From sequence record NC_007637.1: a stretch of DNA of 45,251 nucleotides. One strand, given 5' to 3'. Both the position numbers and the translations under genes were made by a program. Below, in pieces: positions 1 through 45,251 of this stretch (position 1 is its first letter; every line of letters begins with the position of its first letter). Under the pieces are notes generated by a model. It ran no database searches. It worked only from the letters and a program-made list of their open reading frames with translations, and was not told the origin of the DNA. The DNA comes from Escherichia phage K1E.

Positions 1-288
1 TCTCGCCCTCGCCCTCGCCGGATTTTCCCCATATGGGGCCGCGCTGCGGTTGGCTTGGGGATTGGGCTAGGCTGGGCCGTCTTCAACCTGCTGCCGCAGG
101 AAGCTCGATGGGTTGGCTGAGGGTTGCCGAGGGCTGCGCTTAGTGGTACACAAGTAGAACGCCTAGGAAGCGCTAGGGCACGCCTTAGTGTTGGACAAGG
201 TGATTGCCTTAGTGCAACCGTTTAGGGCTTACACAGGCCGTTTTAGGGCAATTCCTGAGTGTTTGACAGGGTGTGAGGGTGTGGGCTA
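1..288. repeat. Left direct terminal repeat (288 bp)
   Basis: The first 288 nt (tctcgccctcgccctcgccggattttcccc ... gggtgtgggcta) recur at 44964..45251 with a constant offset of 44963. Begins with three CTCGCC hexamers and is GC-rich. Confidence 0.85.
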
Positions 289-359
289 TCTGTTCGTTTC
301 GCTACGCTTCACTCACTGCTCCTCACTTCGCTGTCGCTCGCTACACTGCCTGTCGTGTA

Positions 360-490
360 CCTTAGGTTATTCCTTGAGGGATGGCTTAGGTTAGCCTTAG
401 TGGGCTACCTTAGTTAAAGCCTTAGTGCTTAGCTTAGTATCAACTTAGTAGTGTACCTTAGTTAGTCTTAGTGCCAGACCTTAGTGATTG
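360..490. repeat. Array of about 10 short CTTAG(T/G) repeats just inside the left terminal repeat
   Basis: CCTTAGT/CTTAGG units at roughly 361, 385, 395, 408, 420, 433, 444, 457, 467 and 478, spaced 10-13 bp. Two more copies lie inside the repeat (183, 206) and three near the right repeat (about 44797-44838). Confidence 0.6.
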
Positions 491-714
491 CATAGCTAAA
501 GCTATAAGATGCAATTAGGTCGCGGTCGGTAGACCGCTGAGAGTAGGTAATAGTGATAAGATGCAGTAGGAGGAACACCAGAAACCTAGCCATCCTAGCC
601 TATCCTAGCTCTGTATCTATTGCTTTCCTTAGTCTCACATGTTAGACAACCTAGGTTTATCTTAGTAGTTGTGACATGTATCACATAAATAATCTATCTT
701 AGTTAAATTTAGTG

Positions 715-743
715 TTGACACAGGCAATCAACAGATATACATT
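715..743 (+). promoter_or_regulatory. Candidate host sigma-70 early promoter
   Basis: Perfect -35 TTGACA at 715..720, then a 16-17 nt spacer and ATACAT/TACATT as -10; followed by an inverted repeat ctgagacgg...ctgtctcag (about 752..780). Upstream of the first early ORFs. Confidence 0.3.
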
Positions 744-884: not shown

Positions 885-915
885 TATAACATTGCTCTTT
901 AACAATTTGCTTAGT
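885..915 (+). promoter_or_regulatory. Early-region repeated element, copy 1 (core GCTCTTTAACAAT, 894..906)
   Basis: One of four copies of a conserved 13-14 nt core lying between early genes; candidate RNA processing or regulatory site. Confidence 0.35.
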
Positions 916-36912: not shown

Positions 36913-37107
36913 ATGATTAACTCCGAACTGGTAGATAGTGGTGTGAAGCTTGCGCCACCTGCATTAGTCTCAGGTGGGTACTTCCTCGGTATCAGTTGGG
37001 ATAATTGGGTGTTAATAGCAACATTCATTTATACCGTGTTGCAAATTGGAGACTGGTTTTATACCAAGATTAAACTATGGAGGAAGAACCGTGAGCGTCC
37101 ACAATAA
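36913..37107 (+). CDS. Holin (T7 gp17.5-like, 64 aa)
   Basis: AAGGAGG RBS; single transmembrane segment NWVLIATFIYTVLQIGDWFYTKIKLWRK parallels T7 gp17.5 as I remember it. Confidence 0.65.
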   Translation: MINSELVDSGVKLAPPALVSGGYFLGISWDNWVLIATFIYTVLQIGDWFYTKIKLWRKNRERPQ

Positions 37108-37390
37108 ACATGCAGCTACAGAAGATGAGGTTGGCATCCTGCATGGTGCTATTACCAAAATCTTTAATAAGAAAGCACAGGCAATACTGGACACTATAGA
37201 AGAAGACCCAGATGCAGCACTGCATTTAGTCTCTGGTAAAGACATTGGAGCTATGTGTAAGTGGGTTCTTGATAATGGTATTACCGCTACACCTGCTGCA
37301 CAGCAGGAGGAGTCCAAGCTATCTAAGCGCCTCAAGGCTATCCGAGAGGCATCAAGTGGCAAGATTATTCAATTCACTAAGGAGGATTGA
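37091..37390 (+). CDS. Putative terminase small subunit (99 aa from GTG start)
   Basis: Track ORF starts at TTG 37046 inside the holin gene; proposed start is GTG 37091 with GGAGG 7 nt upstream; position matches T7 gene 18. Confidence 0.45.
   Translation: MSVHNKHAATEDEVGILHGAITKIFNKKAQAILDTIEEDPDAALHLVSGKDIGAMCKWVLDNGITATPAAQQEESKLSKRLKAIREASSGKIIQFTKED
37182..37204 (+). promoter_or_regulatory. Weak SP6-type promoter-like sequence inside coding sequence (+1 G at 37199)
   Basis: CAATACTGGACACTATAGAAGAA; perfect core with mismatches at -17 to -15. Confidence 0.4.
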
Positions 37391-38556
37391 TGGCTAAGGC
37401 AAGAGAATCACAAGCGGAGGCTCTTGCCAGATGGGAGATGCTACAGGAGTTACAGCAGACCTTTCCTTACACAGCGGAAGGTTTGCTTCTCTTTGCAGAC
37501 ACAGTTATTCATAACTTAATTGCAGGCAACCCTCATCTGATTCGTATGCAGGCTGATATCTTGAAGTTCCTATTCTACGGACACAAGTATCGCCTCATCG
37601 AAGCGCCTCGTGGTATCGCTAAGACAACACTATCAGCAATCTATACAGTATTCCGTATCATTCATGAACCGCATAAGCGTATCATGGTTGTATCCCAAAA
37701 CGCCAAGCGAGCAGAGGAAATCGCAGGTTGGGTAGTTAAAATCTTCCGTGGCCTAGACTTTCTTGAGTTTATGCTACCGGACATCTACGCAGGGGACCGT
37801 GCCTCAGTTAAGGCATTTGAGATTCATTACACCCTACGTGGCAGTGACAAGTCGCCTTCTGTGTCTTGTTACTCAATCGAAGCAGGTATGCAGGGTGCGC
37901 GTGCAGATATCATCCTAGCAGATGACGTTGAGTCAATGCAGAATGCTCGTACAGCGGCAGGACGTGCCTTGCTTGAGGAACTGACCAAGGAGTTTGAATC
38001 TATTAACCAGTTTGGTGATATTATCTACCTTGGTACTCCTCAGAACGTAAACTCTATCTACAATAACCTACCTGCTCGTGGTTACTCTGTTCGTATCTGG
38101 ACTGCACGTTATCCCTCAGTGGAGCAGGAGCAATGCTATGGTGACTTCCTTGCACCTATGATTGTGCAGGATATGAAGGACAACCCAGCACTTCGCTCAG
38201 GGTATGGCTTGGATGGCAATAGTGGTGCCCCTTGTGCACCTGAAATGTATGATGATGATGTGCTGATTGAGAAGGAAATCTCGCAGGGTGCGGCTAAGTT
38301 CCAGCTTCAGTTCATGCTTAACACTCGCATGATGGATGCTGACCGCTATCCGCTACGCCTGAACAACCTCATCTTCACTTCATTCGGTACAGAGGAAGTC
38401 CCTGTGATGCCTACGTGGAGCAATGATTCCATCAATATTATTGGCGATGCACCGAAGTATGGCAATAAGCCTACAGACTTCATGTATCGACCTGTGGCTC
38501 GCCCGTATGAATGGGGCGCTGTCACTCGTAAGATTATGTATATTGACCCTGCTGGT
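37390..38556 (+). CDS. Terminase large subunit, exon 1 (389 codons)
   Basis: ATG 37390 with AAGGAGG upstream; Walker A-like PRGIAKTT and Walker B ADIILADDVE; similarity to T7 gp19 stops at ...IDPAG, where an insertion begins. Confidence 0.85.
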
Positions 38557-39311
38557 AAACACCTCTGCCAGCGTAAAACCCTCTTAATTCGGTGGAACTC
38601 TCACTGAGACAATACCGAGCGAAGCCTGTTGCAATAACAGGAACGTGTAGAGACTAACTGTAAGGCCAAGCGGTCTGAAACAGAGGGAGGCGCAAGCCTA
38701 AGATATAGTCCGACCTACTAGGTGACTAGTAGAAGTTAAAGTAGCGAATTAACGTAACAATTGAAGGGAGTTAAATATGACAGAGCATAAAGTTTATCAT
38801 ATTCGTGTTGTTGGTGAAACTGATGTAATGCAAGGTTATATTGGTGTAACCTCCGATATTAAGAAGCGTATGAGAGAGCACAAGTGTGCAGGCCGTCTTT
38901 GTGATGGCCGCGAGTACGTTATCTTATTCACTGGTAGCAAAGAAGAGTGTTATGCACTAGAAGAGAAGCTACGCCCACATGACAACATGGGTTGGAATAA
39001 GGGTAAAGGTGGTTATCGCAAAGCAGGTAACATCGAGAAAGGTGAACGCATAAGTATTGCCACTGAAATCAAGAAAGGACAGCACTTGTCTGTTGCCACT
39101 GAGTTCAAGAAAGGCATGACACCTTACAACAAAGGTACTGGCAAAGATTACATATTCACTTCTCCAGATGGTGAAGAGTTTCTTGTAACTTGCATTACTG
39201 ACTTCTGTAAAGAGCACAACCTAACACCTCAGAATATGCGTAAGGTGGCACGTGGTTTACGTAAACACCACAAGGGTTGGCTCGCACGTCACGTTCAAAC
39301 CGGGAGGTAAG
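38557..39311 (+). mobile_element. Group I intron (candidate, self-splicing) carrying a homing endonuclease gene
   Basis: Conserved elements in canonical order: P AATTCGGTGGAA (38586..38597), Q AATACCGAGC (38611..38620), R GTAGAGACTAACTG (38647..38660), S AAGATATAGTCC (38700..38711). P1 pairing of exon GCTGGT (38551..38556) with GCCAGC (38567..38572). The 3' boundary is uncertain: G39311 or G39302. Confidence 0.75.
38777..39310 (+). CDS. GIY-YIG homing endonuclease (I-TevI-like, 177 aa) encoded within the intron
   Basis: AAGGGAG RBS; N-terminal KVYHIRVV...GYIGVTSDIKKRMREH (GIY-YIG with conserved Arg/Glu); central repeated GERISIATEIKKG / HLSVATEFKKG units; basic C-terminal DNA-binding-like region. 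Confidence 0.8.
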   Translation: MTEHKVYHIRVVGETDVMQGYIGVTSDIKKRMREHKCAGRLCDGREYVILFTGSKEECYALEEKLRPHDNMGWNKGKGGYRKAGNIEKGERISIATEIKKGQHLSVATEFKKGMTPYNKGTGKDYIFTSPDGEEFLVTCITDFCKEHNLTPQNMRKVARGLRKHHKGWLARHVQTGR

Positions 39312-40034
39312 AATGGGGATGAAACGGGTGTGGCTATCGTCTTCCTGCACGGCACATTCATTTATGTGTATCAGTGCTTTGGTGTGCCGGGAGGATACCG
39401 CGAATCGTCCCTGAATCGCATTGTGCAGGCCGCAAAGCAGGCAGGTGTTAAAGAGGTATTCATTGAAAAGAACTTTGGTCATGGCGCGTTTGAGGCCGTT
39501 ATAAAGCCATACTTTGAACGAGAGTGGCCTGTGACTCTGGAGGAAGATTACGCCACCGGACAGAAAGAGTTGCGTATCATTGAAACACTAGAGCCACTAA
39601 TGGCGGCCCACAGGCTCATCTTCAACGCAGAGATGGTCAAGTCTGATTTTGAGTCGGTACAGCACTATCCGCTTGAGCTACGCATGTCATACAGCCTTTT
39701 CAATCAAATGTCGAACATCACGATTGAGAAGAACAGCCTACGACACGATGACCGCTTAGACGCTCTGTATGGCGCTATACGGCAATTAACTTCTCAGATA
39801 GACTATGACGAGGTTACACGGATTAATCGCCTCAGAGCGCAGGAGATGCGCGATTACATCCATGCTATGAACACACCTCACCTCCGTAGGGCAATGCTCT
39901 ATGGAGATTATGGCACTGAGCGAAGAGTAACCAACACTTCCGTGGCTATGCAGCAAAGAGTATACGGTCAGAATTACAGGAGTAAATCGGCAAGCAGAAA
40001 TACACTTTCTGCAAGGATTTCAAGGACTTATTAA
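39312..40034 (+). CDS. Terminase large subunit, exon 2 (240 codons; may instead begin at 39303)
   Basis: NGDETGVAIVFLHG...EKNFGHGAFEAV...QKELRIIETLEPLMAAHRLIFN...HDDRLDAL parallels the C-terminal nuclease domain of T7 gp19. Confidence 0.85.
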   Translation, partial: NGDETGVAIVFLHGTFIYVYQCFGVPGGYRESSLNRIVQAAKQAGVKEVFIEKNFGHGAFEAVIKPYFEREWPVTLEEDYATGQKELRIIETLEPLMAAHRLIFNAEMVKSDFESVQHYPLELRMSYSLFNQMSNITIEKNSLRHDDRLDALYGAIRQLTSQIDYDEVTRINRLRAQEMRDYIHAMNTPHLRRAMLYGDYGTERRVTNTSVAMQQRVYGQNYRSKSASRNTLSARISRTY

Positions 40035-44657: not shown

Positions 44658-44963
44658 GCAATCTGCTGCACGCCAGAACACATAAGAACTTATACAATCA
44701 GGACGTGACCCTAAGCAGGCATACGCCATTGCCAAGGATGTACAACGTCGTGCCATGAAGAAACCTTCTGCATCTTCTGCGTAAGCAGGTTAATATCTTA
44801 GTGTACACAAGGGCAGACTTAGGTTTGCTCTTAGTGTAATCCAAGGAGGTAACATGCAAGAGGAGAATTGGGATGTGTAATGTTGGATATGGAGAAGGTT
44901 GAACCTCAGTGTTGTACAAGGATTAACCAAAGTAAAAATTTTGATATAGGCGTGTGTCAGCTC

Positions 44964-45251
44964 TCTCGCCCTCGCCCTCGCCGGATTTTCCCCATATGGG
45001 GCCGCGCTGCGGTTGGCTTGGGGATTGGGCTAGGCTGGGCCGTCTTCAACCTGCTGCCGCAGGAAGCTCGATGGGTTGGCTGAGGGTTGCCGAGGGCTGC
45101 GCTTAGTGGTACACAAGTAGAACGCCTAGGAAGCGCTAGGGCACGCCTTAGTGTTGGACAAGGTGATTGCCTTAGTGCAACCGTTTAGGGCTTACACAGG
45201 CCGTTTTAGGGCAATTCCTGAGTGTTTGACAGGGTGTGAGGGTGTGGGCTA
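44964..45251. repeat. Right direct terminal repeat (288 bp)
   Basis: Copy of 1..288 running to the last base of the window; matched by eye over the visible stretches. Confidence 0.85.

Follow-up and report, generated by a model that had tools for sequence, protein, structure and literature searches.

A conserved one-strand array of CTTAG(T/G) repeats at the left end of Escherichia phage K1E and its SP6-like relatives, and its possible role in concatemer maturation

What is a row of short direct repeats, all of them pointing in the same direction, doing just inside the end of a phage genome? In T7 such rows, which Dunn and Studier reportedly named SRL and SRR in 1983, accompany the terminal repeats of the linear genome, and to our knowledge their role has not been established since they were first described. 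The left end of phage K1E raises the same question with a repeat of a different sequence, CTTAG(T/G). An earlier note on this DNA, made from the letters alone, had pointed to T7 and called its arrays implicated in concatemer processing. This last attribution, in fact, goes beyond the record: it comes from the position of the arrays, and the full-text literature that could be searched, which was short of the key papers of 1983–1996, contained no experimental evidence for it and nothing on SP6-group repeats or on T7-array function. Here, we describe the array and its surroundings, compare them with those of related and distant phages, and weigh the functions that they may point to.

The window analysed, i.e., the whole stretch of 45,251 bp, is a complete linear podophage DNA of the SP6/K1E-like type with a G+C content of 45%; the closest matches of its first 3 kb are K1E/K1-5-like members of Vectrevirus (Autographiviridae, Molineuxvirinae), the best of them with 95.5% identity over 88% of the query. 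The genome ends on both sides in an exact direct terminal repeat (DTR) of 288 bp, positions 1–288 being identical to 44964–45251 (both given on the plus strand). The left tip of the DTR (2–19) is made of three CTCGCC units, and in its right part (268–283) Tandem Repeats Finder (TRF) detects two copies of AGGGTGTG. A AAAATTTTGATATAGGCGTGTGTCAGCTC block (44933–44963), kept in all of the SP6-like relatives examined, adjoins the right DTR on its left and is a candidate part of the signal for cutting at the left boundary.

The main array occupies positions 361–485 of the plus strand, beginning 73 bp past the end of the left DTR, and consists of ten CTTAG(T/G) copies, with starts at 361, 385, 396, 409, 421, 433, 444, 457, 467 and 480, and of an eleventh, overlapping CTTAG, the CTTAGC at 428, all of them head-to-tail. 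The CTTAG(T/G) array that the earlier note had placed just inside the left repeat is thus borne out. The gaps between successive copies are 24, 11, 13, 12, 7+5, 11, 13, 10 and 13 bp, with a modal spacing of 12 bp, so that the spacing of 10–13 bp originally described holds for most of the gaps but not for one of 24 bp. The extended unit can be written as t-R-c-CTTAG-T-g, and TRF, as an independent check, gives the array a period of 23–24 bp, i.e., units of approximately 12 bp taken in pairs. An unbroken lattice of approximately 12 bp runs through nine sites (385–485). A lattice of 11 sites, in which one mismatch per site was allowed, was considered and rejected because its chain is interrupted at relics with two mismatches, and for this reason only the unbroken nine-site lattice is claimed, for the K1E/K1-5 type.

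Such a concentration of copies is not a matter of composition. In 100 first-order Markov simulations of the whole genome the maximum number of CTTAGK copies per 130 bp was 3, and in 2000 simulations of the local composition it was 4, in comparison with the 10 observed; chance does not explain the array, and the possibility left open at its first description, that the motif is no more frequent than base composition predicts, falls away. The polarity is equally marked, with 17 copies on the plus strand of the first kilobase and none on the minus strand. Over the entire genome, 75 CTTAGK were observed and 52.9 ± 7.8 expected, and the excess corresponds to the 23 terminal copies. In the gene body the motif is neither enriched nor depleted, its counts being near expectation, which rules out a genome-wide avoidance or enrichment of the motif.

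Further copies are found outside the main array. Three CTTAGTG lie inside the left DTR (139–145, 184–190 and 208–214) and recur in the right one (45102, 45147 and 45171), as had been noticed at the outset; K1-5 also has three copies within its DTR, and SP6 has one. Three more (44797, 44818 and 44830, all on the plus strand, spanning 44797–44835) are located in non-coding DNA, 134–167 bp before the right DTR begins. To describe the motif as flanking the repeats overstates this right side, where the copies are few and variable: SP6 and K1-5 have three, the other relatives one to three at variable positions, often within a CTTAGTGTAAYCAAAGGAGG cassette that precedes tiny ORFs. Read along a concatemer, the order is right-flank copies, DTR with its three copies, ATCTGTT, a pyrimidine-rich spacer, and the array. 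Downstream of the array, dispersed CTTAGT copies (628, 661 and 698, spanning 628–703, plus strand) precede the first sigma-70-type early promoter detected by a promoter scan (TTGACA 715–720, TACATT 738–743, plus strand), the nearest of them (698) starting 17 bp upstream of TTGACA (715). In SP6, K1-5, Koku and SE29, CTTAGTG abuts the TTGACA –35 box of the early promoter, and in these left ends a second CTTAGTG is sometimes found within the promoter spacer. One more CTTAGT (910–915, plus strand) is located just 3′ of a CTCTTTAACAAT motif (895–906), an arrangement kept in SP6, K1-5 and the Klebsiella relatives; the T7 left end has the same 12-mer at about 814–825, a position that we take to be that of the RNase III site R0.3. 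More generally, CTTAGT follows by 3–14 nt each of the CTCTTTAACAAT and CTTTTAACAAT motifs (895–915 and 2241–2271), and the motif may therefore have a second context, at the level of RNA. Two isolated copies are also placed in hairpin loops, one (14725) shortly after the phage promoter at 14704, the other (16446) in the terminator-like hairpin ccctgtctgcCTTAGTGtaggcagggtctttt.

Conservation was assessed on 26 distinct SP6-like left ends, which include the K1E window itself, SP6, K1-5, nine GenBank phages of Escherichia, Citrobacter, Salmonella and Klebsiella hosts, and IMG/VR contigs; an exact-pattern scan of IMG/VR with GTGGGCTATCTGTTC gave mostly chance matches, and fifteen true SP6-like loci were kept after filtering. 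The genera Vectrevirus, Zindervirus and Ulipvirus are represented, together with Klebsiella relatives that have no genus assignment. The array is found in all 26 sequences, with 5–11 CTTAG copies between ATCTGTT and a downstream palindrome and 0–1 copies on the opposite strand, and the conservation in related phages on which the first description had been made to depend is thereby confirmed. Also in the relatives the modal spacing of the copies is 12 bp. In the MAFFT alignment the mean pairwise identity is 0.895 in the core columns and 0.564 in the spacer columns (Mann-Whitney p = 5e-14), the spacing series 11, 13, 12, 12, 11, 13, 10, 13 is identical in 14 distinct sequences of the K1E/K1-5 type, and where copies are missing the alignment has lost 12 or 25 columns, i.e., whole units. 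Taken together, conservation and spacing show selection on the core, on the polarity and on the phasing. The first CTTAG copy, instead, lies at a distance from ATCTGTT and the DTR boundary that varies from 27 to 115 bp among the relatives, and selection acts neither on the sequence of the spacers nor on the distance to the repeat.

The array is, then, a conserved non-coding cis-acting element, and on these comparative grounds it appears clearly functional. The contrary view, that it serves no function and arose like a minisatellite in non-coding DNA, through slippage during replication or through unequal recombination, could call on the shifts of copy number by whole units, from 5 to 11 among the relatives, and on the neighbouring spacer, which does expand by slippage in one IMG/VR relative (L090). 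We regard it as highly improbable: the cores are much better conserved than the spacers across diverged genera, the spacing pattern is shared without change by 14 distinct genomes, the polarity is absolute, and comparable arrays with different units occupy the same place in distantly related phages.

The surroundings of the array are themselves organized. The heptamer ATCTGTT (288–294, plus strand) straddles the right boundary of the DTR and is identical to the class II pause/termination signal of the T7 concatemer junction, at which T7 RNA polymerase pauses (10.1101/2021.01.11.426313; PMC11617373). It is found at the right DTR boundary also in SP6 (174), K1-5 (234), T7 (161) and T3 (232), and its pairwise identity in the 26 SP6-like sequences is 0.98. 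The GC skew, which is +0.19 in the DTR (the plus strand being G-rich), flips to –0.35 right after this heptamer. The spacer that separates the DTR end from the array (295–360, plus strand) is pyrimidine-rich and variable in length; the C+T content over 289–360 is 73%, and the pairwise identity over columns 295–352 is as low as 0.33, i.e., conservation is weak. This spacer is built from TCACTCACTGCTCC-like units, which in L090 are expanded several-fold. On the other side of the array, an imperfect palindrome, ATTGCATAGCTAAAGCTATAAGATGCAAT (487–515, assigned to neither strand), starts 7–8 bp past the last copy in 25 of the 26 sequences, and from this fixed distance it follows that the link between array and palindrome module is likewise maintained by selection. 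In relatives ACATGCAAGCATGT replaces ATAGCTAAAGCTAT in the palindrome, an exchange in which both arms change and the dyad symmetry is maintained. Next to it is an inverted repeat, GCGGTC-ggta-GACCGC (520–540, again without strand), kept in all of the SP6-like relatives fetched, and the region comprising palindrome and hairpin (484–545) folds far better than shuffled sequences (z = –4.5). Further downstream, the sequence TAAGATGCA-TAGG recurs at 505–519 and at about 559–571, and CCTAGC is found three times (585–609), 9–10 bp apart and with a TRF period of 10, in K1E as in SP6 and K1-5; it is absent from the Klebsiella relatives.

Several simple readings of the array can be set aside. No ORF of at least 20 aa spans it, short ORFs merely clipping its 5′ and 3′ edges, and the motif supplies TAG on the plus strand and TAA on the minus strand in all frames; a coding array is ruled out by these stops on both strands together with the lack of a spanning ORF. 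Single-strand folding of the array is no better than that of shuffled sequence (z = –0.32), which rules out a secondary structure of the array itself, and an Rfam search of positions 1–1100 gave no match at E ≤ 1. The classic SP6 promoter contains TTTAGGT, and fragments of phage promoters were considered and discarded: the promoters of this phage have their own consensus, ATTTACYGGACACTATAG, which is unlike the repeat, and none of the promoter sites contains a CTTAG core. These promoters are twelve CACTATAG sites, all on the plus strand between 6834 and 41727, of which 11 match ATTTACYGGACACTATAGAAG; the terminal 6.8 kb on the left and 3.5 kb on the right are free of them, and counterparts of T7 phiOL and phiOR are therefore lacking. 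A leftward host promoter inside the array, such as A0 of T7, was likewise discarded, as a scan of the minus strand found none.

The same observations bear on a role in transcription, in which phage RNA polymerase that passes the ATCTGTT pause in a concatemer would be slowed or stopped at the array, naked or covered by protein, and the early region thus be insulated, or in which CUUAG would act in the RNA. The array does lie 73 bp downstream of the class II pause signal, the last phage promoter, at about 41727, faces the junction, and CTTAGT is found in the two hairpin loops mentioned above (14725 and 16446) and after two CTYTTAACAAT motifs, which are presumably of the RNase III type. The array, on the other hand, has no predicted structure and the region 1–1100 no Rfam family, the motif differs from the phage promoter consensus, and a strict phasing of approximately 12 bp is not what would be expected of an RNA motif; on balance, we consider this explanation improbable, even if less so than the lack of any function.

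A different perspective is offered by the comparison with T7 and with other Autographiviridae. In T7, 11 copies of CCTAAAG are present on one strand from position 176, with a period of 13 bp and none on the opposite strand, directly after ATCTGTT (161); the 160-bp repeat contains three more, and a few others precede the right repeat. The likeness to K1E is therefore one of architecture. In both phages the array is non-coding and lies just inside the left repeat, before the early host promoters; a short core recurs in it at least ten times, always in the same orientation, with a spacing of 12–13 bp; ATCTGTT precedes it at the repeat boundary, three copies accompany it in the repeat and a few more ahead of the right repeat; and the two small terminases are members of one protein family. 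The arrays of T7 are in this sense comparable, as the earlier note had held, and it was equally right that the unit is another one, CTTAGT here, or CCTTAGT(G) in a longer form, and CCTAAAG in T7. The two systems also differ in the period (approximately 12 bp here, 13 bp in T7), in the spacer (27–115 bp in the SP6-like phages, whereas in T7 ATCTGTT and the first copy start 15 bp apart, at 161 and 176), in the downstream palindrome and hairpin to which the array is locked here, and in the promoter that follows the array in T7, phiOL, which has no counterpart here.

Beyond T7, over-represented k-mers confined to one strand were found in T3, K1F, gh-1, Era103, LIMElight and phiKMV. The unit is C[CT]TAAAG in T3, where it follows the ATCTGTT at 232, CCTACAG/CATAAG in K1F, GGCTATC with a spacing of 10–11 bp in LIMElight, CCATAGG in gh-1, CTTATGG/GCTAGGC in Era103 and of the CCTGG type in phiKMV. 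Clear arrays are those of T7, T3, K1F and LIMElight; in gh-1, Era103 and phiKMV, for which the motifs were picked by eye from k-mer tables, the copies are fewer or irregularly spaced and form looser clusters. The boundary heptamer varies as well, being ATCTGTA in K1F and gh-1 and ATCTATC in Era103. Since the unit differs even within the T7 subfamily, we treat it as lineage-specific rather than as defining, and, judged from sequence, the array of K1E is the SP6-group equivalent of the T7 short-repeat arrays, both of which would be instances of a general, lineage-tuned design.

Which protein could read such a design? That equivalent arrays occur in both Studiervirinae and Molineuxvirinae with drifting units suggests that the binder is a conserved core protein with a drifting specificity. 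Co-oriented sites on a fixed lattice, extending over approximately 100–125 bp, fit a homo-oligomer, either a ring or a filament, with one site per subunit; direct repeats in one orientation would suit a cyclic or filamentous homo-oligomer of this kind, while dimeric regulators would be expected to read inverted repeats. The position of the copies on both sides of the repeat and inside it, and beside a pause site, points to concatemer maturation as the process concerned. A candidate is encoded in the window: the small terminase subunit gene (37046–37390, plus strand) belongs to the T7 gp18 family (PHROG 891, E = 3e-25; Pfam PF11123, DNA_Packaging_2), and T7 gp18 also matches PF11123. In T7, gp18 recognises pacB in concatemers (PMC9860248), and the pause of the polymerase at the junction has been linked to the recruitment of gp18/gp19 (PMC3276506). 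The kinship through PF11123, the recognition of pac by gp18 and the pause-linked recruitment lead us to favour a terminase track, in which the array is a terminase-loading or end-sensing element in concatemer maturation, with both the binding and the process putative; we assign to it a probability of about 0.45, i.e., slightly below even odds. The genes of this locus show a further peculiarity, in that the large terminase gene (region 37387–40034) is split into two ORFs, 37387–38607 and 39252–40034, by an insert bearing an HNH endonuclease ORF (38777–39310), which suggests an intron or a homing-endonuclease insertion.

According to the favoured mechanism, the array would offer about 9–11 identical head-to-tail protein-recognition sites on a lattice of approximately 12 bp, on which an oligomeric phage protein would load with one subunit per site; the palindrome at the 3′ end of the array may serve as the nucleation point, and the resulting complex of protein and array would then work on the junction of the concatemer while the DNA is matured and packaged. 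Among possible binders the gp18-family small terminase, here the product of 37046–37390, would be the most plausible trans-acting candidate.

Some features of the locus speak against a terminase track. A pac- or cos-type array should keep a fixed geometry to the cleavage site, and the distance from the DTR boundary, 27–115 bp among the relatives, argues against a precisely phased part of a cutting complex; the fixed neighbour of the array is instead the palindrome and hairpin module. The copies beside the –35 boxes and after CTCTTTAACAAT suggest other or additional uses of the motif, and the array of IME184, with only five copies, indicates that the full array is not strictly required. The pac sites of T7 and T3 were reportedly mapped by Chung and Hinkle (1990) and Tsuchida et al. 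(1996), in work that may show the left array to be dispensable for the packaging of plasmids. Furthermore, the left end of T7 enters the cell first (PMC7697293), so that the left end of the SP6-like phages, if these behave like T7, would be packaged last, and the large array would be found at the terminating and not at the initiating end, unlike cosB of lambda.

Precisely this probable leading position could assign the array to the beginning of infection rather than to packaging, as an element that binds a host or virion-borne protein holding, protecting or braking the leading end or, in a variant, that modulates the adjacent early promoters of the host polymerase. After the entry of the T7 left end, internalization is coupled to transcription (PMC7697293), the first sigma-70 promoter (715–743) is preceded by the array and by the further copies, CTTAGTG abuts the –35 box or sits in the promoter spacer in SP6, K1-5, SE29 and Koku, and the array on the left is much bigger than the set on the right. 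Such a role would leave the copies in the DTR and to the left of the right DTR unexplained, and the difference among the units of phages that share E. coli as host (T7, K1F and K1E) points to a reader encoded by the phage rather than by the host. We know of no host regulator site that the motif matches. Even with its two variants taken together, this explanation seems to us unlikely, if somewhat less so than a role in transcription.

Clustered short repeats on both sides of a cut region have well-known parallels. The R sites of lambda cosB, the hexamers that flank the cut in P1 pac and the pacL/pacR boxes of SPP1 are recognition sites of terminases made of repeated motifs. The array of K1E resembles them in this clustering around the cut region, while it has more copies, all co-oriented and on a lattice of approximately 12 bp, its distance from the cut site is not fixed, it is located at the end that is probably packaged last, and its binding by a terminase is putative.

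A second parallel, with the iterons of replication origins, supports another reading, in which array, palindrome and hairpin would together form a secondary origin, a priming zone or an aid to the duplication of the terminal repeat. Direct repeats in one orientation beside inverted repeats do resemble iteron origins, the array is followed at 7–8 bp by a palindrome that keeps its symmetry and then by a stable hairpin (z = –4.5), and in genomes of the T7 type every junction requires a duplication of the terminal repeat (PMC10438801). The units of K1E, with approximately 12 bp and a core of 6–7 bp, are however much shorter than typical iterons of 17–22 bp; no initiator gene was identified, and neither DnaA boxes nor a clear AT-rich unwinding element accompany the array, the A+T content of 491–712 being 61% in comparison with 55% in the genome; no phage promoter is found within 6.8 kb; and copies are present also inside and beyond the terminal repeat. 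The origins of T7 depend on phage promoters, and the recognition site of the SP6 primase is, we assume, GCA, which the motif does not contain. We judge this reading doubtful, to the same degree as a role in early infection.

Returning to the terminase track, a more specific form of it can be put forward as a speculation, in which the lattice would be a wrapping track for a ring-shaped small terminase, nucleated at the palindrome, and would work as an end-sensing or termination signal at the end packaged last, and not start packaging in the manner of lambda cosB. This form is rather unlikely as it stands, and clearly less probable than the general reading from which it is drawn; if it were true, the lineage-specific units of the Autographiviridae would constitute a natural code of terminase specificity, and the role of the T7 array would become directly testable.

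Independently of which protein reads it, the array has an immediate practical use, since CTTAGT repeats together with ATCTGTT mark the true left end in SP6-like assemblies that are circularly permuted or devoid of the terminal repeat. On a more general level, the comparative constraints described here make the old question of the role of the T7 arrays experimentally tractable and provide three handles on it: the architecture recurs in the SP6 group with another unit; the unit, its polarity and its phasing of approximately 12 bp are under selection, whereas neither the spacers nor the distance to the repeat is; and every lineage examined has its own over-represented short motif confined to one strand.
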